A stretch of 64,000 nucleotides of DNA from Candidatus Magasanikiibacteriota bacterium (GTDB lineage: Bacteria; Patescibacteriota; Patescibacteriia; Magasanikbacterales; UBA922): contig JBAQFA010000022.1 in assembly GCA_049287025.1 (NCBI GenBank), forward strand, positions 30,225 through 94,224. Direction: 5' to 3'. Below, one piece after another: positions 1-56,923 of this stretch. Each line of letters begins with the position of its first letter. Within the stretch, counting starts at the first letter, position 1. A program made the position numbers and the translations under genes. Below the pieces are notes generated by a model. The model worked only from the letters and a program-made list of their open reading frames with translations, did no database searches and was not told where the DNA came from.

Positions 1-13
1 AGATATTTGTACA

Positions 14-42
14 TTGACAAAACATATAAAAATGTGTATACT
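14..42 (+). promoter_or_regulatory. sigma70-like promoter TTGACA-17-TATACT driving high-GC ORF
   Basis: ttgaca at 14-19, 17-nt spacer, tatact at 37-42; GGAGG at 60-64 five nt before ATG 70. Confidence 0.5.
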
Positions 43-69
43 TTTTTTAACAACTGACTGGAGGCGACC

Positions 70-291
70 ATGAGTCGCTCGACATTTGCTAGGAGGATGC
101 GCGAAGTGGCGAGGGCCTCTGGCCTTCGTCGTGGTGCTATCCGTCAGCAGGTAGTGGTATTCACCCCTAACGGCCAGTACGTGGGCCGAATCAAGCGGGT
201 GGAGGGATACCAGGTGGTGATTGCTTCTAGGTCGTTGATCGAGCGCAAGATCCGCGGATCTCGGATTCGCAAGATCACGCTCGTCGGCTAG
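70..291 (+). CDS. hypothetical basic 73-aa protein, compositionally foreign (high G+C)
   Basis: ORF with strong G/C third-position bias in AT-rich genome; own promoter and SD. Confidence 0.45.
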   Translation: MSRSTFARRMREVARASGLRRGAIRQQVVVFTPNGQYVGRIKRVEGYQVVIASRSLIERKIRGSRIRKITLVG

Positions 292-454
292 GGCATTCGT
301 GCTCAAGCCGACAAAAAAGGCACATTCAACAACCTACAAGGAGAACAAGGGGGGCCGACACAACAAGGAGGCCCAAAAAAGATTATCATGTTTGGTAGTC
401 TTTTTTGTTTTTATATTCAATATTTTGCTTTACATCTGAGTTTGTGTTAAAATG

Positions 455-545
455 ATCTTTGTTAGGAGCGCTTCCGTTCAATACGGGGGCTGAGAAGTAT
501 CCTTATAACTTGATCTAGGTAATGCTAGCGCAAGGAAACAGAAAC
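455..545 (+). promoter_or_regulatory. TPP (THI-box) riboswitch
   Basis: ggagcgcttccgttcaatacgggggCTGAGAagtatccttataaCTTGATCTAGGTAATGCTAGCGCAAGGAA closely matches the conserved thiM-type aptamer (CUGAGA, ACCUGAUCUGGAUAAUGCCAGCGUAGGGAA); downstream alternative hairpins and T-run; upstream TTGCTT-17-TAAAAT promoter near 427-455. Confidence 0.8.
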
Positions 546-615
546 ACTAATTTTGTTCACTAATCTTCACTAATAGTGTTTGTTGTTTCCTTGTTAGGAA
601 ATTTTTTTGTTTTTA

Positions 616-1247
616 TGAAAATTTTGATAATTGCCAATGGAGAAATTAAAAATTATGGATTTTATACATATTTAATTAGTCAGTCTGCTTTAGTTATTTG
701 TGCTGATGGGGGAGCGAATCATTGTCCTGGTTTAGACGTGGTGCCAGATTATGTAATTGGGGATTTTGATTCGGTTTCTAAAGATTTGTTGGAAGAATTA
801 AAAAATAATCATAAAACAAAAGTTATTTATGATCCAGATCAGGACAAAACTGATTTGGAATTGGCAATTAAACTTGCAGAATCATTTCAACCAGAAGAAA
901 TAAATATTATTGGGGCGATTGGTGATAGAATGGATCATACTTTAGCAAATATAATTTGTCTGGATCAAGTAAATAGAAAAATTAAAGCCAAAATTATAAA
1001 TGAAAAAAATGAAATTGAATTGATAGAAGATATTTGTGAGATAGAAGGGGAGCGGGATGATATCGTGTCTATTATCCCATTAAATTTGGTGACAGGGCTC
1101 ACTTATGAAGGATTGAAATATGGAGTAAAAAATAAACAAGTTGATTTGGGTTGGATTGGAGTGTGTAATCGTTTAGAAAATGATACAGCTAAAATTAAAA
1201 TAAATAGTGGTAAAATTTTGGTTATTAAGATTTCAGATAACAAATAG
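616..1247 (+). CDS. thiamine pyrophosphokinase (TPK)
   Basis: GGANHC and DYVIGDFDS motifs typical of TPK; ATG at 616 preferred over upstream alternative start at 576. Confidence 0.75.
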
Positions 1248-1296
1248 CAGATAACATTAAGCAGTAGACAAAATCTAAATGCTATCTGTTATCTGC
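1247..1296. repeat. composite palindrome gcagataaca...tgttatctgc with duplicated cagataac half-sites
   Basis: 10-bp perfect inverted repeat 1247-1256 / 1287-1296 plus direct copies. Confidence 0.5.
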
Positions 1297-1340
1297 ATTC
1301 TGAGACTATTAAACAACACACAAATTAATTAATAATAATT

Positions 1341-2744
1341 ATGCTTAATATTTCATCTGTCGACTACTCAATAATCATAATCTATTTTATTTCCCTACTC
1401 GCTATTGGCTATTTTATCAAGCACAAATTTATTGAGACTTCTGATTATTTCTTGGCGGGCAGAAGGTTAACCTTACCAATTTTTGTGGCCACGCTTGTTA
1501 GCACTTGGTATGGTGGTACTATGGGAGTAGTGGAATTATCTTTCAATTATGGTTTGGTCAATTGGCTGACGCAGGGATTTTTTTGGTATTTGAGTTATTT
1601 ATTTTTTGCTTTTTTCTTGGCCAAAAAAGTCCGTCAATCAGAGCTTTTTACGGTACCTGATCAACTAGAAAAATTTTATGACAAACGGTCGCGTTTTTTG
1701 GGTGGAATTTTTAGTTTTCTCATGGTGACGCCAGCGCCTTATATTTTATCTTTGGGAATTATTTTTTCGTTATTTTTTGGTTGGCCAGTCTGGGCTGGAG
1801 CCTTGTTAAGTACTATTATTACGATTTTTTATACTTATCGTGGTGGTTTTCGAGCCGATGTCATTACTGATGTGATTCAATTTTTTCTAATGTTTATTGG
1901 TATTGGTTTGCTAGTTCCTTTTGCTGTAGCAAAATTTGGGGGCTTAAGTTTTTTACAAGCCAATTTACCAGCCACGCATTTTAGTTTAACCGGGGAGTGG
2001 ACCACACAAATGATTTTAGTTTGGGGATTTATTGCTTTTTGGACTTTGCTTGATCCGAGTTTTTATCAACGTTGTTATGCTACCAAAAATGATAAAATCC
2101 CTAAGAAGGGAATATTAATTTCAATTTTATTTTGGATGGTGTTTGATTTTTTTACGACCACGATTGGTATGTATGCTCGGGCAGCGATGCCAGACCTAGA
2201 TCCAGCCACAGCCTTACCCATGTTCGCGATCGCTGTTTTACCAAAAGTTTTTTTAGGATTATTTTTTACTGGTTTGATCGCTTCTATTTTATCTACCGTA
2301 GATTCTTTTACTATGCTTGGGGCGATGAATCTCTCTCATGATTTATACAAGAAAATTTTTAAGCCAGATCTTAGTGGAGAAAGAGAAATAAAATTAACTC
2401 GTTACGGCATAATTTTTACGGCTGGAATTTCTTTAATCATTGCTATTTTTGCTAGATCAATTATTGGTATCTGGTATACTATTGGAACAATTGGTATAAG
2501 TGCTATGTTAATTCCTCTATTGTTTGGTTTTTTTTACAAACGTAAACTCTGTGCCAGTGCTTCATTTTATTCTATGATTTTTGGGTCACTTACTGCCATC
2601 GGCTGGCTAATTTATGGCTATGCCAATATGGTTGATGGTTGGGCTAGTTATTTATGGGGTATAGAGCCGATGTATCCCGGACTTATCGTATCACTGGTCG
2701 TTTATATTGGAATAACAATATTTCAAAATAAAAAATCTCTATAA
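1341..2744 (+). CDS. sodium:solute symporter (SSS) family transporter
   Basis: about 13 TM segments, LAGRRL motif near N-terminus. Confidence 0.75.
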   Translation: MLNISSVDYSIIIIYFISLLAIGYFIKHKFIETSDYFLAGRRLTLPIFVATLVSTWYGGTMGVVELSFNYGLVNWLTQGFFWYLSYLFFAFFLAKKVRQSELFTVPDQLEKFYDKRSRFLGGIFSFLMVTPAPYILSLGIIFSLFFGWPVWAGALLSTIITIFYTYRGGFRADVITDVIQFFLMFIGIGLLVPFAVAKFGGLSFLQANLPATHFSLTGEWTTQMILVWGFIAFWTLLDPSFYQRCYATKNDKIPKKGILISILFWMVFDFFTTTIGMYARAAMPDLDPATALPMFAIAVLPKVFLGLFFTGLIASILSTVDSFTMLGAMNLSHDLYKKIFKPDLSGEREIKLTRYGIIFTAGISLIIAIFARSIIGIWYTIGTIGISAMLIPLLFGFFYKRKLCASASFYSMIFGSLTAIGWLIYGYANMVDGWASYLWGIEPMYPGLIVSLVVYIGITIFQNKKSL

Positions 2745-2752
2745 AAACGAAC

Positions 2753-2784
2753 GACCCCCGACATGCAACTTGCACGCGGGGGTC
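2753..2784 (-). terminator. GC-rich hairpin terminator of high-GC gene
   Basis: gacccccg...cgggggtc stem with inner tgcaa/ttgca stem; T-run follows on minus strand. Confidence 0.55.
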
Positions 2785-2808
2785 TGTTCTCTCGCCGGGG
2801 TGACGAGC

Positions 2809-3276
2809 TCAGCTGTAGAAGCCGAGCCTCTGCCACCAGTGGGGCGGGAAAACGACGTTCGGGTTGAACTTCTGGTCGGCATCGGTGGATGACACCTTTA
2901 CCGGCTTGATCTGGACGTCCCTGTTCACGAAGAACTGGAACGTCACGAGGTCACGACCGATGTAGGTGGAAACCACAGCTACCCCGTCCGATCCCGACTC
3001 TACGTAGCCGTAGTAGTCGAAGCCGGCACCAATCTTGGGGACTTCGAGGTAGAAGCCCACCAAGGTGGTGAAGGGTCGGCCGTCCTCGCTACGCAACACG
3101 ATGTTGCGCATGCCAGGCGTCTCCTGACCGCCGTAGCTGAACTCGACCAGGTGATGGCTCGACTCCGCGAACTGGTTGAAGAAGTTGAACTTCTTCATCA
3201 TTTCGCTGGCGAGGAACCAGCTGGTGGAGGCGAACAGGACGACCAGCAATGCAAGCAGAATCGTGAGCTTGTTCAA
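2809..3276 (-). CDS. hypothetical membrane-anchored protein, compositionally foreign (high G+C)
   Basis: TTG start at 3276 preceded by GGAGAG; N-terminal TM helix; track ORF to 3348 would overlap its own promoter. Confidence 0.45.
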   Translation of the reverse strand: MNKLTILLALLVVLFASTSWFLASEMMKKFNFFNQFAESSHHLVEFSYGGQETPGMRNIVLRSEDGRPFTTLVGFYLEVPKIGAGFDYYGYVESGSDGVAVVSTYIGRDLVTFQFFVNRDVQIKPVKVSSTDADQKFNPNVVFPPHWWQRLGFYS

Positions 3277-3319
3277 TTGTCTCTCCAGATTTGGGTTGTT
3301 CTCAACTTCCGAACGATTC

Positions 3320-3348
3320 AATATAACATAAAAACAGACCTTTGTCAA
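3320..3348 (-). promoter_or_regulatory. sigma70-like promoter TTGACA-17-TATATT (minus strand)
   Basis: tgtcaa 3343-3348 and aatata 3320-3325 on plus strand. Confidence 0.5.
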
Positions 3349-3384
3349 GGTCTATTTAGTATAATTTAGCTAGATTTAGGCTTT

Positions 3385-4176
3385 TTATTTATTTTTAGTA
3401 AATACGACAGAATTTATAACTTTTTCTATATCTTTTATAGTAATTTCTGGGTATTTAAAATAAAAACTTAATGTTTTGAATTCATCACTATAGTCTTCAG
3501 GTAGTTTTAAAATGGCAATTATTCCATCTTTTTCATTCGCATAAAAATTAATTGCATAAAACACATAGGCTTCAAGATTATCTTCTCTAATTATAGTTTT
3601 TAAATAATTTTTATCATTAGTTATTGAAGAAGTGTTAAATTCATAATTATTTGTATGCCAATAATCTTTACCTGCAGTAAAATCTTTAGAAACACCACCA
3701 GCAAATTCATACCCATGATTAGATAAGTCAAGTACACGCCAACTATATTGCGAACCACTATCTAAACTATAATACTCTGGAGCTAATTTCGGTGATTGAT
3801 AATTATAATCCGTACTACTCACTGCTCCCAAAGGTATGGGAAAATTAAAAGAAATATTTACATCTTTACTTTCAAATTTTTTCCAAACAAATTTGTTAAT
3901 TTTTGGAATATAAACATCTACATTTTCTGATATTCTAGCATTGTTATAAACAAATTCTTCATTATTTTTAGGATAAATATAACATCCATTACCACAACTA
4001 ATTAATTCTTCTGGTGTGGTTAATATTTTACCTTCAACAGTGTTCAATTGAATTTTTTTAATTTCTTCTTTTTTTACTATTTCAACATTTTTGTTTACTA
4101 TTTCAACATTTTTGTTTTTTGTGGCACAGCCTGTAGTAAAAATAATAATAATTAGAACTAATAAAATTTTATACAT
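3385..4176 (-). CDS. lipoprotein, hypothetical
   Basis: lipobox FTTGC after signal peptide; internal 21-bp tandem duplication near 4075-4120. Confidence 0.5.
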   Translation of the reverse strand: MYKILLVLIIIIFTTGCATKNKNVEIVNKNVEIVKKEEIKKIQLNTVEGKILTTPEELISCGNGCYIYPKNNEEFVYNNARISENVDVYIPKINKFVWKKFESKDVNISFNFPIPLGAVSSTDYNYQSPKLAPEYYSLDSGSQYSWRVLDLSNHGYEFAGGVSKDFTAGKDYWHTNNYEFNTSSITNDKNYLKTIIREDNLEAYVFYAINFYANEKDGIIAILKLPEDYSDEFKTLSFYFKYPEITIKDIEKVINSVVFTKNK

Positions 4177-4180
4177 AAGT

Positions 4181-4441
4181 TTATTTATTTTTTAACCACC
4201 ATTTTTTAAAAAAGGGAATTGATAAAGTAGAAATAACAAAAGCAAGAGAGGGGACAACCGCATTTTTAAATGGTTCTGATAAATTGGCAAAATAAAAAAA
4301 TATAGTGATTACCAAATAAGTAGAAACCAGAATAATGAATCGGCGTGCCCAGCTCGTTTCCCAGGCTTTGTCTTTCTCTACCCGTTCATTACGTTCTTTT
4401 ATTTCATTTATTTGTTGTTGAAGTTCTTCATTTGTGGGCAT
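4181..4441 (-). CDS. small membrane protein
   Basis: ORF, one or two TM helices. Confidence 0.35.
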   Translation of the reverse strand: MPTNEELQQQINEIKERNERVEKDKAWETSWARRFIILVSTYLVITIFFYFANLSEPFKNAVVPSLAFVISTLSIPFFKKWWLKNK

Positions 4442-4451
4442 AAAATTTTAA

Positions 4452-4766
4452 TTATTTTTTAAAATATTTTTCTTTTATTAGCCAGATCAATCCCATAAGA
4501 CAAAAAAATAAAGCAAGAACGAGTGAATAGAGTGAATGGCCAACACCACATTTGATATCATCTGGGTTTAACCAGCAATCAATTGGACCGGCTAAAAATT
4601 TTGTATACAAACTCAAAATGATAGCGACTGCAATTAAATACAGACCTTTATGGTACCAGGCCTTACCTCTGGCTATTTTTTCTAGCGGTAAGTAGACTCC
4701 TAGGAAAATCATGCTGAGAGCTAGAGTAAAAAATAGTACTTGTATGATTGGTGATGTATTCATCAT
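4452..4766 (-). CDS. small membrane protein
   Basis: ORF, three TM helices; overlaps next gene by ATGA. Confidence 0.4.
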   Translation of the reverse strand: MMNTSPIIQVLFFTLALSMIFLGVYLPLEKIARGKAWYHKGLYLIAVAIILSLYTKFLAGPIDCWLNPDDIKCGVGHSLYSLVLALFFCLMGLIWLIKEKYFKK

Positions 4767-5386
4767 AATAAATTGTTAAGAGTAGAATATCCTAAATATA
4801 TGGCAAAGGCAATTAAAATACAACCGGCAATAAAAGAAATTATTTTCATTACTTTTTCATTGACAAATCTCTTGCCCATATGTGCTAAAAAAGAAATGAC
4901 AAATCCCCAAATTATTGCGCCCAAGATTACAAAGCCTAAATTTATCAAAAAATTAAGGTTATGTGTATTGTAGTTTGGGTTGGAAGCAAAGATGCTATAA
5001 AAACCTAGCCACGCAATGGGAGCTAAGGGGTTTGTGATGTTGATTAAAAATCCAGCCCAGAAAGTATCACCAAAAGTTTTTTTAATTTTTTTATCTAAAA
5101 TATTTTTTCCAAAAGCGTTTTTGATATCACCAATACCAAAGTAAATTAATAGTAGCACGCCAAAAGTTCCTAAGACCAGGGAAAAAGTTTGACTTTGGAA
5201 AAAAGAAGTAAAAGCAAAAAAGATTAAGATCAAATAAATGGCGTCGATCAAAACTGCACCCATGTTGGTTATAAACGCTGACCAAAATCCATGTTCTAGT
5301 CCGCGTCGAATAGTTAAAATAGTCACTGGACCAATAGCGGCTACAAAACTAATACCAAGGATAATGAATTTTAGAAAGTCGGGCAT
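4763..5386 (-). CDS. LysE/RhtB family translocator
   Basis: about 200 aa, 6 TM, N-terminal GPV..RGL motif. Confidence 0.5.
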   Translation of the reverse strand: MPDFLKFIILGISFVAAIGPVTILTIRRGLEHGFWSAFITNMGAVLIDAIYLILIFFAFTSFFQSQTFSLVLGTFGVLLLIYFGIGDIKNAFGKNILDKKIKKTFGDTFWAGFLINITNPLAPIAWLGFYSIFASNPNYNTHNLNFLINLGFVILGAIIWGFVISFLAHMGKRFVNEKVMKIISFIAGCILIAFAIYLGYSTLNNLL

Positions 5387-5390
5387 AAAA

Positions 5391-5939
5391 TTAAATCATT
5401 TTTAAAAAATTTCTAAAAATTTGTTTTCCATTTTCACCAGAGACTTCAGGATGGAATTGTAAGCCATATTTATTGCCAAATTTCATGGCTTCATTTTCAC
5501 AAGAAATAGATTTGGCCAATAACATAATATCAACCGGCAAAGAGACAAATTCAGAGTGTTCTTTTTTAAATAAAGTATTTTTATCTACGCCTTCAAATAG
5601 GGGATCATATTGAATAATTTCAATTGGTTCATCTTTACTAATCAATTCACCATGGCCAATTTGTCCGCCATACAAAAGACCTAATATCTGATGACCGAGA
5701 CAGATTCCTAAAACTGGAATATTAATATTTTTTATAAATTCAAATGGCTGAATAAATTTTTTATAATCAATTTGTGAAAGTTTGGTTGGTCCACCAGTAA
5801 TAATAATGCCAGAGTAAACGTTAAAATCATGATTTGTGATTTAATCAATGTTTACAACTATATTTTTATAACCAAAATCATTAAAAGTATTTTGAATATT
5901 TTTTAAAAACATGGTGCCACAATTAATAATACAGATCAT
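5391..5939 (-). pseudogene. class I glutamine amidotransferase (GuaA-N-like) interrupted by in-frame TAA
   Basis: GICLGHQ Cys and FHPEVS His motifs; ATG 5939, in-frame TAA at 5841-5843 (codon 33), frame continues ITNHDFNVYSGIIITGGP. Confidence 0.5.
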
Positions 5940-5952
5940 AATTTATTTTAAC

Positions 5953-6267
5953 TTACTTTTTTATAATTTTAATTCCTCTTAATCCTAAAATCAATAAAAC
6001 CAAAATAATTATTTTTAAAATATAGTGGCCATGTAAATCTAAAAAATTTTTTGTAAATGGAGTAACGTTGCCAACTAATAGATGTATAATAATAGAGATT
6101 GGTAGAGTAAGAAAAAGCCAATTGATTTTTGGTATGTCAAGTTTGATTTTTTTAAAGAGTTTGGTTAATAGGGGAGAAAGTAACCAAATTCCAAGAAAAG
6201 AAACAACAAAATCAAAAATTGCATAGCCACCCAATCTAAATTGACGTAGAAATTCAATAATAGACAT
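5953..6267 (-). CDS. small membrane protein
   Basis: ORF with 3 TM. Confidence 0.4.
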   Translation of the reverse strand: MSIIEFLRQFRLGGYAIFDFVVSFLGIWLLSPLLTKLFKKIKLDIPKINWLFLTLPISIIIHLLVGNVTPFTKNFLDLHGHYILKIIILVLLILGLRGIKIIKK

Positions 6268-6270
6268 AAA

Positions 6271-6882
6271 TTATTTATTAAATTTATTCCACTTTTCAAT
6301 CAAAGCTAAAATATCTTTTTCAAATTCTAGCATTAGTTTTTGATTGTTTTCCGCGGTTTTCCAGTTTGATCTTTCTTCAGCTCCGAGTAATCTGCCAAAA
6401 ATATCTCTAAAAAATCTTGGATAACCCAGGTCAGTATTTACTAACCATTTTTGATTTTTATTTTCCAAGAAAAGATATTTTTGTTTTTGAACAAATTCCT
6501 TTTTCATTTCTTCTAGATTAGAAATTTTATGCAAGGTTTTTTCATCTGGTATTATTTGTTCAGTATTAAAATTAAAAGGTAAGAAATGGGTGTGAGCATG
6601 AAAAACAGTTTGACCAGTAACACCGTGTTCAAATATTCCTACTTCACCATAGTATGTTTTTATAAACAATTTAACTTTTTCGTATAGTTCTATATATTTT
6701 CCAAAAGCGTCTTCTGACAAACTACCCATGGTAGAGACATGAGCTTTGGGAATAATAAGAATATGTCCTTCGGTGAGTGGGTGAACATCACAAACAATCC
6801 AAAATAAATTATCAGTATAGAGTGGATGTTTTAGTCCGATTTCACCAGGGCAGTGAGCGCAGTTGTTATCTTGATTATTCAT
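6271..6882 (-). CDS. HIT family hydrolase-like protein
   Basis: HAHTHFL histidine triad motif, CAHCPGE N-terminal. Confidence 0.55.
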   Translation of the reverse strand: MNNQDNNCAHCPGEIGLKHPLYTDNLFWIVCDVHPLTEGHILIIPKAHVSTMGSLSEDAFGKYIELYEKVKLFIKTYYGEVGIFEHGVTGQTVFHAHTHFLPFNFNTEQIIPDEKTLHKISNLEEMKKEFVQKQKYLFLENKNQKWLVNTDLGYPRFFRDIFGRLLGAEERSNWKTAENNQKLMLEFEKDILALIEKWNKFNK

Positions 6883-6925
6883 AAAATTACAACACTATTG
6901 TATCATCTTTTATTAAATAAAAAAA

Positions 6926-6950
6926 CTCCCCAGGGTTGGTGGGGAGTTCT
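6926..6950. terminator. bidirectional intrinsic terminator aaaaaactccccagggttggtggggagtt
   Basis: A-run, GC stem, T-run. Confidence 0.6.
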
Positions 6951-7019
6951 GTGTTTGAATTATTTTTTTATACCTATTATTCCACTAATGTAAATTTCAA
7001 TTTTTATATGTATTAAATA

Positions 7020-7517
7020 TTATTTATTGCACGCCTCATAAAAAAGTATAGCAGATTTTACTCGTAGGTATTCAATACAAGATGCCATCACTGGTTGAGC
7101 TTGTTCTGAAAATAATTTATCATCACAACCTTTATTTCTAGGTGATTTTCTACAATTTAAGATTTTTTCCGCTATATTATTGTTGTAAAATGAGTAACAG
7201 CCAAGTGCAATTTTATCTACCTGTTTTCCAATATCTAAATTTTTAGTAACACAGTCTTGATAATTTTTGTCAGATTGAAGTAATTTTATAGCTTTTAAGC
7301 TTATGGCATATTCTTCTTTTGTGAAAGTGTGAGACTGTGTACTATCGTTTTTATTATCAGTAGATTCAATATCATTGTTTGTTTGAACTGGTGGCTGAGT
7401 AATAGTTTTGGATTGTTCTGGATTAGCGGAATCATCATTTATTAGAGTGTCTTGTCCGGTAGTGGCACAGCCAGTTAAGAGGAGTGCAAAAGATAATGCA
7501 AAAATGATTTTTTTCAT
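7020..7517 (-). CDS. lipoprotein, hypothetical
   Basis: LLTGCATT lipobox. Confidence 0.5.
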   Translation of the reverse strand: MKKIIFALSFALLLTGCATTGQDTLINDDSANPEQSKTITQPPVQTNNDIESTDNKNDSTQSHTFTKEEYAISLKAIKLLQSDKNYQDCVTKNLDIGKQVDKIALGCYSFYNNNIAEKILNCRKSPRNKGCDDKLFSEQAQPVMASCIEYLRVKSAILFYEACNK

Positions 7518-7605
7518 AATAGTATGAAATGATTAATTAGTTAATAAAATTTGTATAATTTAAGCAAGATTGTTATATATGATGATTATATCACTTTTTT
7601 CCATA

Positions 7606-7633
7606 TAAAAAAACTCCCCAGGGTGGGGAAGTT
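7606..7633. terminator. intrinsic terminator aaaaaactccccagggtggggaagttt
   Basis: same family as 6926. Confidence 0.55.
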
Positions 7634-7643
7634 TAATTGTATT

Positions 7644-8690
7644 TTATGATTGATCACGTTGAATTCCACTAGGGGTTGCTTGAATTTTACCAAATCCTAG
7701 GGCTGACCCGTTTGTTTCTAAGTAGAAGTTCATTTTGTAAGTTTGTCCATCGTTTGAGACATAGGTATAGTTTGATTGTGGTGATAGTGGGTCAGATGGA
7801 ACTGGGTTCATAAATTGGTAAGGCTTTTCACATCCGGCTGGTTCAAAACCATTTTCTCCTAAACATGTGTAGTTTTTTGAACCTAGAATAATGGCTGAGT
7901 TTGCTAGAGGATATTTGTGGTTGTTTTGATAATATAGTTCTAAAGATGTTTGAATTCGTCTCATTTCGCTTATTCTTTGTTCATCTCTTTTTTTTGCTTC
8001 TAATTCTAATGTAACCTCATCTGGTAGAGCGGGGACATTAGTAATTAATGTTTTTAGTTCTTTGTTTAAAGCACACTCAGCTTTAGTTTTTACTACCATA
8101 GCATAACCAGCGTAAGAAACGTCTTGGAGAATGTCAATATTAGTTTTTTCCCAATTTTGAATAGTTGGATTCCACAAATACATTTTTTCAAATTCACAGT
8201 TACCTATAGTAAGCCCGCCTTGAGAAAATTGTGGCACTATAGAAATAAAGTTCCAGCCAGCATGTAGTTTTACTGGTCTGGTAAAGGCATCTTTACTAAC
8301 TTCTAGAGTAAATTTCGCTGGCTGTTTAAAATAAATCCACATGGGGGATAATTGTAAATAATCGCGATTCTGTGCCATTATTTGGTAATCAGCATCTTTG
8401 TATCCACCAGAAGTAGTGATATATCGACCAACAGATGGGGCATAGACATAGAAAGGTGTTAAGATGTTTGATAAATCATTATTTTCATACAAATCCATAC
8501 CAGAAAAACCACCTTCTGGTAATAAATTCCAGCCTTTAGCTATTTCAATTTCTATCAACCAATGGTCAGCGTTTCTTGGGCTAGTCTTATCAGGAATGCT
8601 AGTTAATTTGGAACTAGTCATAGCTTGAGCTATTAGAGCCGAGCCAAAAATGATGGTTAGAATGATTGTGAAGAAAAAATATTTTTTCAT
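7644..8690 (-). CDS. secreted protein with C-terminal pilin-like domain
   Basis: Sec signal peptide; LELYYQNNHKYP resembles pseudopilin globular-domain motif. Confidence 0.45.
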   Translation of the reverse strand: MKKYFFFTIILTIIFGSALIAQAMTSSKLTSIPDKTSPRNADHWLIEIEIAKGWNLLPEGGFSGMDLYENNDLSNILTPFYVYAPSVGRYITTSGGYKDADYQIMAQNRDYLQLSPMWIYFKQPAKFTLEVSKDAFTRPVKLHAGWNFISIVPQFSQGGLTIGNCEFEKMYLWNPTIQNWEKTNIDILQDVSYAGYAMVVKTKAECALNKELKTLITNVPALPDEVTLELEAKKRDEQRISEMRRIQTSLELYYQNNHKYPLANSAIILGSKNYTCLGENGFEPAGCEKPYQFMNPVPSDPLSPQSNYTYVSNDGQTYKMNFYLETNGSALGFGKIQATPSGIQRDQS

Positions 8691-8706
8691 ATTATATAAA
8701 TTTTAT

Positions 8707-8931
8707 TTAATCTTTTGGTAGAGCCGGTGGCGGTGGTATAACATTATCAGAATCAGAATTTTTAGTTTCAGTATTGTTTGTTTTTATAACAGCGTTATTT
8801 ACAGTTTCTTCATCACTTGGTAGAGCTGGTGGTTGTGGTGCCACCTCGTCATTTTTTTGTGATTTATTATAAGTAGTAGCACAGCCACTCATTATTAGTA
8901 TCAAAACTAATAATAACATTGTTTTTTTCAT
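8707..8931 (-). CDS. small lipoprotein
   Basis: MSGCATT lipobox; leader 8932-8960 duplicated at 7518-7550. Confidence 0.45.
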   Translation of the reverse strand: MKKTMLLLVLILIMSGCATTYNKSQKNDEVAPQPPALPSDEETVNNAVIKTNNTETKNSDSDNVIPPPPALPKD

Positions 8932-9049
8932 ATAGTATGAAATGATTAATTAGTGAATAGACTTTAGCATAATTAAGCTAAAATGTCAATATAAAATGGC
9001 TTGGTTATTATAGCATAATTTTTTGTATAAAAATACTTCAAAAATATAT

Positions 9050-9079
9050 TTGACTAAGTATATAAAATTTGGTTAAATA
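9050..9079 (+). promoter_or_regulatory. sigma70-like promoter TTGACT-17-TTAAAT
   Basis: immediately upstream of high-GC ORF, SD ctgagg. Confidence 0.4.
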
Positions 9080-9102
9080 TTTTTGGTAACCAACTGAGGC
9101 TG

Positions 9103-9300
9103 ATGATGTGTCTCTTTAGCGAGCTGTCCGAGGGATCGCACTTCCATCGGAAGGACGACCATGTGATCTACAAGAGGATGCGGCTGGCCTGGTATGTGTT
9201 TTGGCTCGGAATCTGCCGAGCCAACGCCGTCCGACTCGAGGATGGCAGTGGCCCGAAGTACTGTCGGGTCGCGGACAATACGGAGGTCGTCTGGGTCTAG
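9103..9300 (+). CDS. hypothetical 65-aa protein, compositionally foreign (high G+C)
   Basis: highest GC3 of the overlapping frames; promoter and SD; GC hairpin 9313-9340 after stop. Confidence 0.35.
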   Translation: MMCLFSELSEGSHFHRKDDHVIYKRMRLAWYVFWLGICRANAVRLEDGSGPKYCRVADNTEVVWV

Positions 9301-9413
9301 CCAACCCACCCCCCCCTGTGATATCGTGTTGCAGGGGGCAACCGAGATTGGGAGGATTTTTATAAACACCCACCATGACTTGCTTTGATTCTGTTTTATA
9401 AAACCGAGTTAGA

Positions 9414-9500
9414 GTAAGGAGACGGTGGGTGTTTTGTTTTATAAAAAAACTCCATAGGGTGGTGTTTAGGGTTCCAGAAAAAAAAGAAAATCAATAATAA
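9414..9500. repeat. direct repeat copy 1 (about 85 bp) flanking high-GC cassette
   Basis: about 90% identical to 9991-10082; contains terminator-like core aaaaaactccatagggtggtg. Confidence 0.7.
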
Positions 9501-9593
9501 AATTACTTGACAAATTTTGTGATATGTTATAGCATAAGACGCTGTATCAGTGGGCCTTTAGTGTCACTTGGACAATAAACGGAGGTGAGGACC

Positions 9594-9899
9594 ATGATCG
9601 TCTTTGGCTGGCTGAAGAAACTTCGGGAACGGAAGGTGCGACGCCTAGAGCAGCAGGAGGCTGCGAGGGCGAAGATGCGGCAGGCGATTGTCGCCTTCAA
9701 CGAGGAGGACTCTGTTGATCCGGTGGCTCGGATCAACAAGGTGGTGCCCATCCTGCAGGCCTACACCACCCTAGCCGACGCTTTCGACCCCGGGTGGCGA
9801 CAGTGGGGGAAGTGCGACCTCACGACTATTCCGGAACTCCACGAGTTCCGAGGCTACATCGGGGTCGTTTTCGCCGACTGTGAGAGCCTGTTCGACTGA
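9594..9899 (+). CDS. hypothetical 101-aa protein, compositionally foreign (high G+C)
   Basis: GGAGGTGAGG SD 9581-9590; TTGACA 9506-9511 promoter; high G+C. Confidence 0.4.
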   Translation: MIVFGWLKKLRERKVRRLEQQEAARAKMRQAIVAFNEEDSVDPVARINKVVPILQAYTTLADAFDPGWRQWGKCDLTTIPELHEFRGYIGVVFADCESLFD

Positions 9900-9990
9900 C
9901 CACAGTTCGTTGGCTTGTAGAGAGGGGGCAAGTCAACGGTACAACAACAACCATTCCACCCCTCGTTAATATTTCAGAATTGGAATAATA

Positions 9991-10082
9991 GCGAAGGAGA
10001 AGAGGAATGGTTTTTGTTTTATAAAAAAACTACATAGGGTGGTGCTTAGGGTTCCAGCAGAAAAAGAAAATCAATAATAAAA
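9991..10082. repeat. direct repeat copy 2
   Basis: see 9414-9500. Confidence 0.7.
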
Positions 10083-10106
10083 CCGACTATTGAGTCGGTT
10101 TTATTT
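10082..10106 (-). terminator. hairpin terminator aaaaccgactattgagtcggtttt
   Basis: 8-bp stem, T-rich on minus; near-identical copy at 10816. Confidence 0.55.
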
Positions 10107-10130
10107 GTCTTTTAATATGTTGTGGGGTTA

Positions 10131-10763
10131 TTAATAAAGAAACACACTTACTAATCCAACTAAAATAATAATAATGCCTAATATTTTTCTAACAACATCC
10201 TCATGCTTTTGATAAAATGATATAGCCCATTTTTGTGAAAACAATTTTGCCCACACGGATCCCATAAGAAAATAAATTGCGGGCAGTATTATGAAAGAAA
10301 TAAATAATACCCACCATGGGAATTCAACTTTTCTTATAGCAAAGAATACGCTCATAAAAAATACAGCATATTTTGGATTAAACAACCCAGTTAAAAAACC
10401 CATTCTTATGGCCTCAGTTTTAGTAAGTTCTTTTATGTGTTCTTTTTCTCCTTCTATTTTTTTTGTCATTATCTCTCTGGAGAGAATTGTTCTCATGCCT
10501 ACGCCAGTGAGATAAATTACACTCAAAATTTGAATTGTTTCAAAAGAAAAATCCCAAACTTTGGAGATGAGAGAAAAAGCGACAATTGACCAAATGATAT
10601 GTATTATGGTGGCCATAGCATTACCCATGGCTGTTTGGATGCCGGTTTTACGTGAGTAAATTAAAGAATTTCTAACAATGACAAAAATTGATGGTTCAAT
10701 TTTGAACCACTCCAAAACACCCAAGGCGCCAAACATTATGATTGATAGTATATTGTCTGCCAT
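10131..10763 (-). CDS. LysE/RhtB family translocator
   Basis: 6 TM, about 210 aa. Confidence 0.5.
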   Translation of the reverse strand: MADNILSIIMFGALGVLEWFKIEPSIFVIVRNSLIYSRKTGIQTAMGNAMATIIHIIWSIVAFSLISKVWDFSFETIQILSVIYLTGVGMRTILSREIMTKKIEGEKEHIKELTKTEAIRMGFLTGLFNPKYAVFFMSVFFAIRKVEFPWWVLFISFIILPAIYFLMGSVWAKLFSQKWAISFYQKHEDVVRKILGIIIILVGLVSVFLY

Positions 10764-10815
10764 ATCATTACATGATATTAAAATTTTTAAAAATAGTCAA
10801 ATAAAATTTTAGTAA

Positions 10816-10841
10816 AACCGACTGGTGGGTCGGTTTTATTT
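10816..10841 (-). terminator. hairpin terminator aaaaccgactggtgggtcggtttt
   Basis: repeat of 10082 hairpin. Confidence 0.55.
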
Positions 10842-10896
10842 GTCTATACTAGTGTTTAAAATCTCCTCCGGGGTTATGGGGTATTATTATTTGAAT

Positions 10897-11496
10897 TTAT
10901 ATAATTTTTATATACTCAGCAAACCTTTTGCCGTAATCGGATATGAAAATTATAGGGTTAAGATTTTCATCTTGAGCACCATTCATCATAAAATCTCCTC
11001 TTCTAGTTTCCAGAAAACCTAATGATATTAGTTTGTTAACGCCACCATAAATTAGGTATATATCATTTCCGCCTAATGACCTTATTGGTACAGGGTCTTG
11101 ATTGCTAAAAAGAGAAGCTAGTAAAATGCACTCGAATTCAGATAAATCATCTAATATTTTTAAGAAAGTTTTGCGTTCATCGATATCATTTATAATAGGT
11201 GTGTTCAATGTTTTTATAAAAAAATTTTTTAATAATCGTTTTTTTTCTTCCCTTGTCTCTATCTCAACTCGGTTTAGTATGTCTTCAATTAAATTGGTTA
11301 GGTCTTCCTTGTTGTGTTTAGACAAAGCAGACTCATTAATTGGATTTTGTTCCAATTCCTGTTTGACTTGTTCTAAAAATTTTTCTAATCTTTCAAATCT
11401 TTTTTCTTGTTTGTTTCCAAAATATAAAGTTGCAAGTGATCCACCTATATATGGGACAGCATTCAATCCCGCTTCAATTATGGTGTCTCGTTTCAT
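10897..11496 (-). CDS. hypothetical protein, co-oriented 26 bp downstream of clpB
   Basis: ORF; no recognised motif. Confidence 0.45.
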   Translation of the reverse strand: MKRDTIIEAGLNAVPYIGGSLATLYFGNKQEKRFERLEKFLEQVKQELEQNPINESALSKHNKEDLTNLIEDILNRVEIETREEKKRLLKNFFIKTLNTPIINDIDERKTFLKILDDLSEFECILLASLFSNQDPVPIRSLGGNDIYLIYGGVNKLISLGFLETRRGDFMMNGAQDENLNPIIFISDYGKRFAEYIKII

Positions 11497-11522
11497 ATTT
11501 ATAATATTAAAATAGTATTTTA

Positions 11523-14159
11523 TTATTTTATTTCAATCTTATCCTTATTTATTTCCACCTTCACCTTGTCACCATCCTCAATCTTTCCTTCTACAATTTG
11601 CATAGCGAGTTTGTCCAAGAGTTCAGTTTGCAAAACTCGTTTTAGAGGGCGAGCGCCGAGATTGGGATCATAACCTTTTTTGGCGAGCCAGTCTTTGGCT
11701 TTTTTGCTCACATCTAGTTCAATTTTTTTACCAAGCAGGCGAGTGGCGATTTTGGCGAGTTGTAAGTCAACAATTTCGCGGATCTGTTCCTCATTCAATG
11801 GATGGAAAGTAATAATATCATCTACACGATTTAGAAATTCTGGTTTAAATTGTTCACGCAGAGCTTCCATTACTTTATTTTTTATCATTTCTTCTTTTAA
11901 TTTTTTATCTCCATCGCCAGAAGCCGAAAATCCAAAGTCACCACTTCTACCCATTTGCATGATCATGTCTGAACCAATATTTGATGTCATAATAATGACC
12001 GTGTTTTTGAAATTTACTTTCCGGCCCTTAGAATCTGTCAGGTGGCCATCTTCCAGAATCTGCAACATCATATTGAACACATCAGGATGGGCTTTTTCTA
12101 TTTCATCAAATAAAATAACTGAGTATGGTCGGCGACGGACGATTTCGGTCAGTTGTCCGCCCTCATCATAACCAACATAGCCAGGAGGGGAGCCAATCAT
12201 TTTGCTAATCGCATGCTTTTCCATATATTCGCTCATATCTACACGCACGAGAGCATCTTCTTCATTAAACATAAATTCAGCCAGAGCTTTGGCTAGTTCA
12301 GTTTTGCCCACACCGGTTGGACCCATGAATATAAATGAACCAATCGGCCGTTTTTCTTCACTCACTCCAGCGCGTGATCGACGAATGGCATTTGATATGG
12401 CCGTGATAGATTCTTCTTGACCAATCACCCGTTTTTTCAAATCTGTTTCCATGTGCGCGAGTTTTTTTATTTCGTCCTGGAGCATTTTACTTACGGGAAT
12501 ACCAGTCCAACGCGCGACTACTGCGGCAATATCTTCTTCATTCACTTCTTCTTTTAGAATCGCTCGGCCTTTTTGAATTTCGGCCAAATGTTTTTCACTT
12601 TTTTTGATCGCTTCTTCCATCATCGGGATTTTGCCATAGCGAATCTCCGCGACTTTTTGCAAATCACCTTTACGTTCTTCAATATCCGCTTGTTGTTTTA
12701 GTTTATCAATTTCTTTTTTGTGTTCGCGAATTTTGGTTATGATTTCTTTTTCATTTTTCCAATGCACTTCCAATTCATGACTTTTTTCTTTCAAGTTGGC
12801 TAATTCTTCTTTTAATTTTTTCATCCGGTCTTTGGATTCACTATCTTCTTCAGTTTTTAGAGCGCGGAGTTCAATATCAATCTTCATCATTTTCCGTTTC
12901 ATTTTGTCCAGGTCATCGGGCATAGAATCTATTTCCATACGGAGAGCAGACGTGGCTTCGTCAATCAGGTCAATCGCTTTGTCTGGTAAAAAGCGATCAG
13001 AAATATAGCGCGTAGAAAGTTCTACCGCGGCTACAATAGCCGGGTCAGTAATCCGCACACCATGATGCACTTCATATTTTTCTTTTATACCACGAAGAAT
13101 CGCAATCGTGTCATCTACACTTGGTTCATGAACCATGACAGGTTGAAAACGGCGTTCAAAAGCGGCATCTCGTTCAATATATTTTTGGTATTCTTTGAGA
13201 GTCGTGGCGCCAATGGTATGAAGTTCACCGCGGGCCAGAGCTGGTTTCAACATGTTGCTTCCGTCAATCGCACCCTCGGTAGAGCCAGAGCCGACAATCG
13301 TGTGGAGTTCATCAATAAATAAAATTATTTTTCCATTAGCTTCAGTGATTTCTTTTAACACTGCTTTAAATCTTTCTTCAAATTCACCACGGAATTTTGT
13401 GCCAGCAATCAATGACCCAATATCCAAAGCAATCACTTCTTTATCTTTTATACTTTCTGGCACATCACCATCGACAATTCTTTGCGCTAGGCCTTCTACA
13501 ATCGCCGTTTTACCTACACCTGGTTCACCAATTAAGACTGGATTATTCTTTGTTCTACGAGAAAGCACTTGCATTACCCGACGCACTTCATCATCCCGAC
13601 CAATCACTGGATCAAGTTTTTCTTTACGCGCCAAGTCAGTGAGATTTTTTCCATATTTTTCCAAAGCTTGATATTTGCTTTCTGGCTCAGGTGAATCAAC
13701 TTTTTGGGTACCTCGCACTTTTGCTAAAACTTTTAAGACATCATCATACTGAACTGCTTGATTTGATAAAACATCACTAATTGGATTTTTGTTAGTCAAA
13801 AAAGCCAAGAGTAAATGTTCTACACTAATATAGTCGTCGCCCATTTTTTGCGCTTCATTGCCAGCATTTTGAATAATATACATCATGGCCTGACCCATTA
13901 AGATTTGTCCTAAACCACCATGAGACATCTGACCTTTTTGTTTCGGTAAAACATTAATCATGGCTTGGACTTCATTTCTCAGTTGCTCTAGATTAACATT
14001 TAATTTTTTCATGATAGACACAACCACACCATCTTCTTGTTCTAATAGGGCAGAGAAGAGATGAGGAGGTTCTACTTGCGGTTGGCCATTTTCATTGGCA
14101 ATTTGATAAGCGCGTTGTAGAGCTTCTTGTGATTTGTGGGTAAAGTTTTGTGGTGTCAT
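11523..14159 (-). CDS. clpB: ATP-dependent chaperone ClpB
   Basis: two AAA+ modules ([16 protein letters not shown]), coiled-coil middle domain, 878 aa. Confidence 0.92.
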
Positions 14160-14202
14160 AAAACATTGATTTCACTGATTAATATGGATTTCACTGAGAG
14201 CA

Positions 14203-14229
14203 TTAGCACTCTTAGTATCCGAGTGATAA
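14203..14229. promoter_or_regulatory. CIRCE-like HrcA operator TTAGCACTC-N9-GAGTGATAA
   Basis: matches CIRCE consensus TTAGCACTC-N9-GAGTGCTAA with one mismatch; 44 bp upstream of clpB. Confidence 0.65.
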
Positions 14230-14230
14230 T

Positions 14231-14258
14231 ATTATAACATCTTGTATTTTTTTGTCAA
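14231..14258 (-). promoter_or_regulatory. clpB promoter TTGACA-16-TATAAT
   Basis: tgtcaa 14253-14258, attata 14231-14236 on plus strand, abutting CIRCE. Confidence 0.6.
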
Positions 14259-14293
14259 ATTTGCTATTATTATAGCATAAAATTAGTTAAGAT

Positions 14294-14560
14294 ATGATTA
14301 ATATGCTAGATAAATTCAAAGATGAAAGCAAAAAAGTTGGTTTGGAAGTTAGACAAAAAGTAGCGACTTTTATTTTGGCTGGTTTTGGGTTAGTGGCTGG
14401 TTTGGCTTGGAATGAAGCCATCAAAGGGTTGATTGATAGATATTTTCCTCTAGCTTCTGGTGGTGGTTTATTGGCAAAGTTTTTGTATGCTTTTATTATT
14501 ACGATTGTGATCGTGGTGGTGTCAATTTATATTTTAAAGACAGAGAAGAAAAGTGATTGA
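14294..14560 (+). CDS. small membrane protein
   Basis: 2 TM ORF. Confidence 0.4.
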   Translation: MINMLDKFKDESKKVGLEVRQKVATFILAGFGLVAGLAWNEAIKGLIDRYFPLASGGGLLAKFLYAFIITIVIVVVSIYILKTEKKSD

Positions 14561-14562
14561 AT

Positions 14563-14645
14563 AGAACACAAATTTAACAAATTATTCCAAATCTTCACAA
14601 ATATATTTGTGGGAATTTGTCTGATTTGTGTAATTTGAGTTCTAT
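14563..14645. repeat. IR-bounded element (family C) tagaacacaaatt...aatttgagttcta
   Basis: 13-bp terminal inverted repeats; second copy 18134-18222. Confidence 0.5.
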
Positions 14646-14646
14646 T

Positions 14647-15375
14647 ATGAATGTCTTGGGAATTAAAATTAGTGAATTGTCAAAAAATCAAACACTAGAA
14701 AAAGTGGCTGAATTTTTGCATGGTGAAAAACAAAATATAATTTTTACCCCTAACCCAGAAATGCTCGTTGATGCTCAGAAAGATAAATATTTTAAAACTG
14801 TTTTGAATAGTGGTGATTTAAATGTGTGTGATGGTTTTGGTCTTTCTCTAGTTAGCGGTGTTAAGAGATATCCTGGTGTAGAACTTATGTTAGATATTTG
14901 CGCGTTAGCAGAAAAAGAAAACAAATCAGTGTATTTTTTAGGGTCTGGCGATAAAGAAGTAATTAGTAATTTGCAATTAGTAATTAAAGAGAAATATTCT
15001 GATTTAAAAATCGCCGGTGCTCACCCTGGACCCAAGTTACAAGTTACAAGTTACAAGTTACAAGTTGATGAACACGAAAACAATGATCTTGTCGCCGACA
15101 TTTCAATGACTGCACCGGATATATTATTCGTCGCCTTCGGTCATGGTAAACAAGAAAAATGGATTCATGAGAATCTAAAGGATTTACCAAGTGTACGAAT
15201 TGCTATGGGTGTGGGTGGATCATTTGATTTTATTTCTGGCAAAGTAAAACGCGCCCCTTTATTTATTCGCAAAATTGGGTTAGAATGGATGTATCGTTTA
15301 GCTATTCAGCCAAGCCGATTTGGTAGAATATTTAAGGCTACTTTTGTATTTATTTATTATTTTTTAAAAAAGTAA
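14647..15375 (+). CDS. WecB/TagA/CpsF family glycosyltransferase
   Basis: family-typical length and C-terminal FIRKIGLEWMYRL; ATG 14647 preferred over TTG 14617. Confidence 0.65.
   Translation: MNVLGIKISELSKNQTLEKVAEFLHGEKQNIIFTPNPEMLVDAQKDKYFKTVLNSGDLNVCDGFGLSLVSGVKRYPGVELMLDICALAEKENKSVYFLGSGDKEVISNLQLVIKEKYSDLKIAGAHPGPKLQVTSYKLQVDEHENNDLVADISMTAPDILFVAFGHGKQEKWIHENLKDLPSVRIAMGVGGSFDFISGKVKRAPLFIRKIGLEWMYRLAIQPSRFGRIFKATFVFIYYFLKK
15034..15061 (+). repeat. 7-bp tandem repeat (aagttac)x4 inside CDS
   Basis: perfect copies, fifth partial. Confidence 0.9.
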
Positions 15376-15377
15376 AG

Positions 15378-15457
15378 AATGTAGAATATTGAATATAGAA
15401 TACCATTGATTTTATTTGTATATTCTACATTCCATATTCTAAATTCTATATTCTAAT
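15378..15457. repeat. long AT-rich palindrome gaatgtagaatat...atattctacattc
   Basis: 13-bp perfect IR with about 30-nt loop plus further tagaata/tattcta repeats. Confidence 0.6.
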
Positions 15458-15458
15458 T

Positions 15459-16214
15459 ATGTTAAGTAAAAAAATAATCCAACACATCAACAAACTCGGT
15501 CAGAAAAAAGTTCGTCATGAAGAACATGAATTTATTATTGAAGGTATAAAGGGTATAAGTGAAGCTTTGGAATCTGACGCTAATATTCTTTTGTTGGTAG
15601 TAGAAGGTAATCGGCGCGATGAAAATGAATTTGTTGAATTAATTAAATTAGCAGAAAGACAACAAGTTTCAATAGAATTTTGTGGACGCAAAGAAGTGGA
15701 TGATATAAAAACGACTGATACTTTTCCTGGAGTTTTGGCAATTGTGGAGCAATCTGAGGTTGAGTTGAATGATTTAACAGGTAATATAATTTGCCTTGAT
15801 GGTGTCAAAGACCCGGGTAATCTTGGGACAATTATTCGTACCGCTGATTGGTTTGGTATAAAAAATATAATACTCGCCGAAGATTGTGTCGATCCATACA
15901 ATCCAAAAGTTGTACGCAGTACCATGGGTTCAATTTTTCGAGTAAATATTTTTGAGAGTGAGGGGATAGTGAGAGATTTGAGTTATTTACAAGAAGACGG
16001 ATATAAATTGAATGGTTTGGTGATGAACGGTGTTAATTTGGATAAACTTAAACCTGGGAATAAAGAAATTTATGTTTTAGGCAGTGAATCCCATGGTATC
16101 AGACCAGAGGTTGAAAAAATATTAGATAAAAAGTATACTATTTCTGGTTCTGGCTCGGCTGAATCTTTGAATGTTGCTGTCGCTTGTGGAATTTTATTGT
16201 CTCGTATATCCTGA
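15459..16214 (+). CDS. SpoU/TrmH family RNA 2'-O-methyltransferase
   Basis: C-terminal SPOUT motifs (LGSESHG, NVAVA). Confidence 0.7.
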   Translation: MLSKKIIQHINKLGQKKVRHEEHEFIIEGIKGISEALESDANILLLVVEGNRRDENEFVELIKLAERQQVSIEFCGRKEVDDIKTTDTFPGVLAIVEQSEVELNDLTGNIICLDGVKDPGNLGTIIRTADWFGIKNIILAEDCVDPYNPKVVRSTMGSIFRVNIFESEGIVRDLSYLQEDGYKLNGLVMNGVNLDKLKPGNKEIYVLGSESHGIRPEVEKILDKKYTISGSGSAESLNVAVACGILLSRIS

Positions 16215-41564: not shown

Positions 41565-41571
41565 AGAAACC

Positions 41572-41696
41572 GTTCATCCCGAGTGATCCGCCCAGGGCGG
41601 AGACGAGGGATCTTTCCTATCTAGAATTTTAGTTGAAAAAAAGATTCACCCTTCGGGTATCTTCGACCTCACCCCTATCGGGGATTCGGAATGAAG
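41572..41696. repeat. palindromic intergenic element family A copy
   Basis: arms cgttcatcccgag...cgagggatctttcc / ...ggggattcggaatgaag. Confidence 0.6.
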
Positions 41697-41762
41697 TTAA
41701 AAAAAAGCCTTTTATAGCTATTATATTGTAGTATATTTAGATATTTTTATCAATAGGGGTGA

Positions 41763-56893: not shown

Positions 56894-56923
56894 GACCAGA
56901 CCACGTGGCAGTTTGAGTAATAT

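Follow-up and report, generated by a model that had tools for sequence, protein, structure and literature searches.

Organization of the locus

The window analysed here, a 64-kb stretch with an overall GC content of 33.7% from a metagenome-assembled Candidatus Magasanikiibacteriota genome, holds at 9050-10105 two small G+C-rich open reading frames (ORFs), C and D. Each lies between a promoter-like site and a long hairpin, and each is followed by one copy of a direct repeat (R1 and R2). The original prediction, made from the sequence alone, had described only the 101-aa ORF D, annotated by NCBI as a hypothetical protein, as a cassette bracketed by direct repeats. It overlooked a second G+C-rich unit just 5' of it (an island at 9090-9340 with up to 65% GC), whose 3' end forms the left repeat copy. 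R1 begins exactly at the U-run of unit C, so the locus consists of two units in tandem, unit C (9050-9502) and unit D (9503-10082). The arrangement is no assembly accident, since the corresponding locus of an independent assembly (L001, GCA_049304355.1) differs from window positions 1-15710 by 4 mismatches. The features of the locus are as follows.

9050-9078 (+): promoter-like site of unit C, with TTGACT at 9050-9055, a 17-nt spacer, TG, and TTAAAT at 9073-9078
9103-9300 (+): putative ORF C, 65 aa, 58% GC, with GAGG 4 nt before the ATG; unannotated
9367-9440 (+): hairpin (9367-9431) and U-run TTTTGTTTT (9432-9440) of unit C, resembling an intrinsic terminator
9432-9502 (+): repeat copy R1, consisting of U-run, ATAAAAAAACTCCATAGGGTGGTG and an A-rich spacer that touches the -35 element of unit D
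9507-9535 (+): promoter-like site of unit D, with TTGACA at 9507-9512, a 17-nt spacer and TAGCAT at 9530-9535; 10/12 matches
9581-9590 (+): Shine-Dalgarno (SD) sequence GGAGGTGAGG of unit D, as read from the sequence; identical in the relative L002
9594-9899 (+): gene D, from the ATG at 9594 to the TGA at 9899, 101 aa, 60.5% GC
9951-10020 (+): hairpin (9951-10010) and U-run TTTTTGTTTT of unit D
10012-10082 (+): repeat copy R2, 94% identical to R1, with a terminator downstream and no promoter
10076-10105 (both strands): predicted bidirectional terminator hairpin AATAAAACCGAC-loop-GTCGGTTTTATT, common to unit D and the convergent LysE-family gene 10131-10763 (-)

The repeats are real. Positions 9432-9502 and 10012-10082 are identical at 67 of 71 sites (94%), the longest uninterrupted match being 22 nt, and two sub-patterns of 28-34 nt each occur exactly twice in the 64 kb, with 0 expected. 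The identity had been put at about 90%; the core exceeds this value, whereas the longer spans originally compared (9414-9500 and 9991-10082) reach only 84% (78 of 93 columns). Weaker homology continues for ~70 nt leftward across both long hairpins (107 of 149 columns). The proposed derivation of the repeats from a local terminator family holds: their middle part corresponds to decayed minus-strand terminators of the type at 6923 and 7611 (AAAAAAACTCC..AGGGTGG), and ATAAAAAAACTCCATAGGGTGGTG in R1 is such a relic. R1 and R2 are thus the shared 3' modules of the tandem units, each made up of a terminator U-run, a relic minus-strand terminator and an A-rich spacer. Exact-pattern scans for the repeat in JGI metagenome contigs and GTDB species genomes gave no match. 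On L002, which carries the closest relative of D, the right half of R1 is kept 5' of the D promoter and R2 is missing; homology to the window stops at about 10035, ~20 nt past the U-run, and an intact terminator stands there instead.

Bracketing by repeats is not special to D, because ordinary neighbouring genes are likewise bracketed by two-copy terminators. The AT-rich LysE-family gene 10131-10763 lies between terminator copies at 10075-10110 and 10810-10845, and their 89% identity bears out the repeated terminator of the original prediction. The AT-rich lipoprotein gene 7020-7517 lies between copies at 6897-6939 and 7585-7627. Such pairs, together with the similar promoter and signal-peptide regions of two lipoprotein genes (see below), suggest frequent local duplication or gene conversion in the 6.9-10.9 kb stretch.

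Gene D certainly codes for a protein and, to judge from its substitution pattern, is under purifying selection. Its G+C content at the first, second and third codon positions (GC1, GC2 and GC3) is.64/.38/.78. The closest relative, P0002 on L002, shares 72% of its amino acids, with 0.16-0.18 nonsynonymous (dN) and 0.42-0.61 synonymous (dS) substitutions per site (dN/dS ~0.3-0.4), and the one 3-nt indel between them keeps the frame. A profile search of 1.84 billion representative proteins added only P0003, P0004 and P0006 to the family, and all named members found by this search and by a word-indexed search of 5.8 billion proteins belong to Magasanikibacteria. Five diverged members have the motif LADAFDPGWR..GKCDL..IPEL in common. 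AlphaFold2 models the protein as a helical hairpin plus a small portion at the C-terminus (mean predicted local distance difference test score, pLDDT, 78), and D would accordingly seem to be a lineage-specific helical-hairpin protein; a PDB fold search with the model gave nothing informative. Searches of Pfam, PHROGs and PADLOC returned no match for D and nothing significant for the four ORFs A-D (A and B are described below).

The divergence between D and its L002 relative is patchy, with 53-70% identity in the region of the N-terminal helix (9604-9660) and ~90% in the middle of the gene. This could reflect either relaxed constraint in the charged N-terminal helix or a recombination mosaic. 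LADAFDPGW(R/K) recurs close to the C-terminal end of large membrane proteins of the multi-pass type (L020, ~5000-5150; L021, 774-851; L022, 4014-4064). These belong to unrelated organisms, some of them G+C-rich, and a match of this length is too short to argue for homology. A search of JGI metagenomes for the D family gave the known loci only, plus false matches to these membrane proteins.

ORF C displays the G+C pattern of a coding frame (.56/.39/.77 at codon positions 1/2/3) and has no homologue in protein databases. The -35 element of its promoter-like site lines up with those of the other units; the site was not listed by a consensus scan because its -10 hexamer is weaker.

A shared 3' hairpin and further G+C-rich units

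The original prediction had given unit D a promoter, an SD sequence, the 101-aa ORF and a weak hairpin. The first three stand, but the hairpin is strong: it spans 60 nt, with a folding energy of -21 to -30 kcal/mol and z = -5.4. The hairpin of unit C is stronger still (-32 to -37 kcal/mol, z = -8.6). In L002 the D hairpin is kept, and the differences are confined to the loop and the inner stem. A scan of the window for long hairpins before U-runs gave a third copy with the same type of 3' module, in unit E, and this unit together with two others of similar composition, A and B, is listed here.

56558-56951 (-): unit E, with TTGACA at 56951-56946, ORF 56893-56681 (70 aa, GC3.66), hairpin 56626-56566 and U-run
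14-420 (+): unit A, with TTGACA at 14-19, GGAGG, ORF 70-291 (73 aa, 59% GC, GC3.68), hairpin and U-run
2745-3348 (-): unit B, with TTGACA at 3348-3343, a TTG start at 3276 and a stop at 2809 (155 aa, GC3.85)

The same two-tier hairpin, with a purine internal loop of AAGGAG type and a U-run, follows D homologues in L002, L003 (twice) and L005. Six variants (C, D, E, L002, L003 and L005) were aligned by hand, since a MAFFT alignment is not structure-aware. The outer stem is paired in 59 of 60 cells and the middle stem in 28 of 30, with many double (compensatory) changes, and pairing that persists despite such changes implies selection for it. Each of the six hairpins has an A-rich stretch on its 5' side and a U-run with at least 7 T in 9 nt on its 3' side. 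An invariable U-run together with an A-rich 5' flank points to an intrinsic, partly bidirectional terminator, and the hairpin may in addition be a barrier to 3' exonucleases. The stem-loop with an immediate U-run that defines intrinsic terminators is present in every variant, although the length of 60-65 nt is atypical. A descriptor scan of the window and of loci L001-L022 found the known variants only. Unit A has a 3' structure unlike that of C, D and E, and the G+C-rich terminator of unit B (2750-2795) also differs from their type.

The 3' arms of these hairpins resemble translation starts, with AAGGAG or GGAGG, 7-10 nt, and then ATG or GTG inside the outer stem. The resulting mini-ORFs run for 5-8 Phe, Leu and Val codons through the U-run to a TAA (MVFVL*, MDFFV*, MFFLL* and MFFLLTRK*). 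They are located at 9414-9445, 9994-10030 and 56585-56540 (-) in the window, at 250-285 in L003 and at 6600-6635 in L005, that of unit C being out of register. The pattern may be incidental to shared ancestry. In viral contigs, the 3'-arm pattern matched only ordinary gene starts with an SD sequence and ATG, without the hairpin.

Unit E lies between ATP-synthase genes and a NuoB-like gene. Its ORF exhibits weak collinear similarity to ORF C (global alignment z = 4.8, with 6 of 5000 shuffles scoring as high); BLASTP gave no match between the two, and the case for their paralogy is at most suggestive. ORFs A, C and E are unannotated, absent from the public protein collection and without homologues. 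Searches with tblastn found nothing for A, C and E in the comparison loci, and nothing for A and E in phages or plasmids.

The protein of unit B has an N-terminal transmembrane helix and a beta-sandwich with weak resemblance to carbohydrate-binding modules. Its orthologue in L015 adjoins the same transporter gene as in the window. The two orthologues are well diverged (dS 1.16, dN/dS 0.23; 42/26/75 differences at codon positions 1/2/3). Promoter and leader are nevertheless identical at 66 of 68 positions, compared with 69% for the coding sequence and 82% for a fragment of the neighbouring transporter gene. Conservation is distributed similarly around D, where the flanks match L002 at 132 of 140 (5', containing the promoter) and 126 of 135 positions, against a dS of 0.4-0.6 in the coding sequence; in 30-nt windows the promoter flank is 90-100% identical. 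In these comparisons the most constrained parts of the D and B families are promoter, leader and 3' module. All seven promoters examined, relatives included, carry TTGAC(A/T).

The -35 element of unit B lies at the centre of a perfect inverted repeat with 7-bp arms, AGACCTT-GACA-AAGGTCT (3335-3355, -). The repeat is kept in L015, inside the stretch that matches at 66 of 68 positions, and looks like an operator.

ORFs A-E have a GC3 of.66-.85, as compared with.24±.044 (maximum 0.33) for the 48 window ORFs of at least 150 aa. The latter are housekeeping genes coding for tRNA synthetases, Mur ligases, MreB/MreC, a penicillin-binding protein, NADH-dehydrogenase-like subunits, ATP synthase, ClpB and an AddA-like helicase. 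Members of the D family have 52-60% GC (GC3.59-.80) in hosts of 34-45% GC, a difference that persists at 32-34% aa identity, and homologues of B are likewise G+C-rich (GC3.85 and.76 in the window and L015 orthologues). Between D and its L002 relative, synonymous third-position changes towards strong (G/C) and weak (A/T) bases are balanced, with 6 each way. No G+C-rich donor, and no phage or plasmid relative, was found in protein collections, viral contigs, IMG/VR, INPHARED or plasmids. The G+C-richness looks like a maintained equilibrium of these gene families and not like a trace of recent transfer.

Interpretation of the tandem units

We consider it fairly probable that the region 9050-10105 consists of two small-gene units in tandem that are autonomous and strongly promoted, share a conserved terminator module and belong to a lineage-specific, persistently G+C-rich set. 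As read from the sequence, each unit comprises a near-consensus sigma-70-type promoter, a strong SD sequence, a G+C-rich ORF and a G+C-rich 3' untranslated region (UTR), followed by the ~65-nt two-tier hairpin, the U-run and a ~60-nt tail made up of a decayed minus-strand terminator and an A-rich spacer. C and D would each be transcribed separately from their own strong promoter. The long hairpin with its U-run would stop transcription and probably protect the 3' end of the mRNA, and termination would shield the unit from the genes around it, the convergent LysE-family gene among them. R1 and R2 are most likely nearly identical because neighbouring 3' ends were duplicated locally or underwent gene conversion, and the same process would have given the ordinary neighbours their paired terminators.

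Several points weigh against this explanation. It gives no cause for the G+C-richness, and its promoters and terminators are inferred from sequence alone. A hairpin of 60-65 nt is unusually long for an intrinsic terminator and may have a role at the DNA level. A mobile cassette would likewise account for the varied contexts of D homologues taken together with the direct repeats of two genomes. A, C and E are orphan ORFs, and ORF C could be non-coding, as the entire 9085-9445 region folds with z = -5.1.

Counting C and D, this 34% GC genome has at least five small-gene units of deviant composition, and their organization is moron-like. Phage morons are defined as autonomous insertions of promoter, gene and terminator with deviant G+C content, e.g. 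HK97 gene 15 (PMC3594210). Like them, the units consist of one gene with its own promoter and factor-independent terminator, as predicted from sequence features, between unrelated genes, and unit D differs sharply from its surroundings in composition (60.5% against 33.7% GC; GC3.78 against.24±.044). Unlike morons, they reside in a bacterial chromosome among housekeeping genes, without a significant PHROGs match or relatives in IMG/VR or INPHARED; their deviant composition is long-lived in the lineage, and several of them share one structured 3' module. With a moron-like organization but no prophage context, they are moron-like units and not morons.

A parallel may also be drawn, by analogy, with the 'positive retroregulators' of Bacillus thuringiensis cry genes, which are long-stem intrinsic terminators that stabilize mRNA 3' ends. 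Both have a very stable 3' stem-loop with a U-run after a gene that is, in the present units by prediction, strongly promoted. The hairpin described here differs in its conserved two-tier form and purine-rich AAGGAG internal loop, and in being common to unrelated genes.

In integrons, attC sites carry the inverted core sites R'' (RYYYAAC) and R' (GTTRRRY). The cassettes are generally promoterless and expressed from the promoter Pc, and the integrase IntI adjoins the array but is not required for clusters of attC sites lacking integrases (CALIN). The units resemble such cassettes in the order of a variable ORF and a ~60-nt imperfect palindrome with structure more conserved than sequence, and in their head-to-tail arrangement. 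They could then be mobile gene cassettes in which the 3' hairpin is an attC-like site served by a recombinase encoded elsewhere, the C-D array and its repeats having arisen by insertion. This view would explain why ORFs as unrelated as the C/E and D types share a homologous, structure-conserved hairpin of 60-65 nt, and it fits the deviant composition, the two-unit arrays in two genomes and the D homologues in unrelated neighbourhoods of four genomes. In L003, a D homologue lies between ~285-nt direct repeats; these are formed by two successive units, each contributing its 3' UTR, its hairpin and the stretch beyond. However, the hairpin ends (C, ..ATAAACACC/GGTGGGTGTTTTGT; D, ..CAACCATTCC/GGAATGGTTTTTGT; E, ..AACATTCACC/GGTGAATGTTTTTT) contain no attC core, GTTRRRY being absent from them on both strands and RYYYAAC likewise missing. 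Every hairpin has a terminator-like U-run after it and an A-rich stretch before it, every unit has its own promoter, and the array holds only two units. No integrase, transposase, recombinase, reverse transcriptase or phage protein is present among the window ORFs of at least 150 aa (Pfam was run on 38 of these) or in the gene table of L001. With attC core sites, an integrase and promoterless cassettes all lacking, the units do not qualify as integron cassettes, and the original statement that this is not a classical integron was correct. The breakpoints of homology also vary, falling after the U-run for C and E, ~20 nt later for the window and L002, and at the repeat end for R1 and R2. Just three hairpin copies exist in the 64 kb, unit B is syntenic in L015, the closest relative of D has the left repeat without the right, and flanking repeats are missing around the D homologues of L004 and L005. 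Cassette mobility in this form is therefore quite unlikely. What survives of the mobility originally proposed is a self-contained, foreign-looking single gene in varied neighbourhoods, together with the L003 repeats, but not the view that the repeats are scars of insertion or sites of recombination. Unit D could still be deleted or duplicated if the 71-nt copies were to recombine homologously.

A recent horizontal acquisition from a G+C-rich bacterium, plasmid or phage, as a moron or genomic islet with unameliorated composition, would account for a GC3 at least ten standard deviations above the genome mean, for amino-acid usage that is also shifted towards GC-rich codons (GC1.64), and for a layout that fits the moron definition (PMC3594210); in L011, moreover, a B homologue has near-host composition in a 50% GC genome. 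We regard it as unlikely, since D relatives occur only in Magasanikibacteria in both large protein searches and are absent from viral contigs, with no relatives in phage records or plasmids either. The anomaly also persists at 32% identity and dS >1 with balanced strong and weak fluxes, no phage genes lie nearby, and within the units it is the AT-rich promoters that are conserved best. If the islands were instead structured non-coding RNAs, the ORFs would be a by-product, left open because stop codons are scarce where G+C is high. In AT-rich genomes, such RNAs are classically recognized as intergenic islands of high G+C; both islands fold far better than shuffled sequences (z = -5.1 and -4.9), and the orphan status of A, C and E agrees with this. 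The terminal hairpins supply much of the folding signal, however, and no Rfam match was found: with the gathering threshold for the whole window and an E-value limit of 10 for 8900-10200, only a thiamine pyrophosphate (TPP) riboswitch at 454-553 and chance matches appeared. Codon-position G+C, dN/dS of 0.3-0.4, the in-frame indel and the motif of five diverged members speak for a coding D, as do the codon-position differences of 42/26/75 and dN/dS of 0.23 for B. The non-coding reading, improbable for the locus as a whole, is thus excluded for D and B and possible for C. As small orphan genes that lie side by side on one strand and are strongly promoted, C and D could, finally, form a toxin-antitoxin or defence module. 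Yet each has its own promoter, a full terminator divides the two, the D homologues of L004 and L005 lack a C-like partner, and PADLOC and Pfam gave no match, which leaves very little in favour of such a module.

Two other candidates were rejected. A diversity-generating retroelement would need a reverse transcriptase, a pair of template and variable repeats, and substitutions specific to adenine. No reverse transcriptase is encoded by the window ORFs of at least 150 aa, and D and its L002 counterpart differ by as many A to G as G to A changes (10 of each), a symmetric spectrum. A miniature inverted-repeat transposable element or repetitive extragenic palindrome, expected in many dispersed copies with inverted repeats at the ends, does not agree with three copies in 64 kb that are always 3' of a GC-rich ORF, with no target-site duplication seen.

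The repeat-flanked cassette is, on the tandem-unit explanation, largely accounted for by ordinary tandem units with similar terminators. Less ordinary are lineage-restricted small genes that stay ~20-25 percentage points above the host G+C over deep divergence, promoters that are more conserved than the coding sequences, and one covarying 3' hairpin in unrelated genes. A bolder and rather doubtful extension is that Magasanikibacteria keep a class of autonomous units in which coding G+C is actively held, promoter and leader are ultra-conserved, and the shared hairpin is a portable module or recombination handle. The G+C content would then be held by selection on mRNA or codon use (e.g. for gated translation or RNase resistance) or, at loci prone to recombination, by GC-biased gene conversion. 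If true, candidate-phylum bacteria would possess a gene-cassette system that has not been described before; our literature search found no description of such a pattern in them. Were the pattern general in these bacteria, it would have implications for how local composition withstands mutation bias, for the common use of deviant G+C as proof of recent transfer, and for gene annotation, as 3 of the 5 ORFs are missing from public annotation. The persistent G+C-richness and the shared 3' hairpin are what makes the locus worth following up.

Neighbouring genes and minor observations

The genes around the units code for LysE-family, HIT, ClpB, ATP synthase and NADH-dehydrogenase-like proteins. No relative of the LysE-family neighbour protein was found in the genome-contig collection, and a search for tRNA and transfer-messenger RNA genes gave none. 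Two lipoprotein genes share homologous promoter and signal-peptide regions (7459-7573 and 8873-8986).

The TPP riboswitch (454-553, +; 67.8 bits) lies directly after unit A and 5' of a thiamine pyrophosphokinase gene. Elsewhere in the window, a membrane-protein ORF (41157-41564, -) is preceded by a hairpin-rich, G+C-enriched leader (41565-41700, -) without an Rfam match, which could be an undescribed cis-regulatory RNA.

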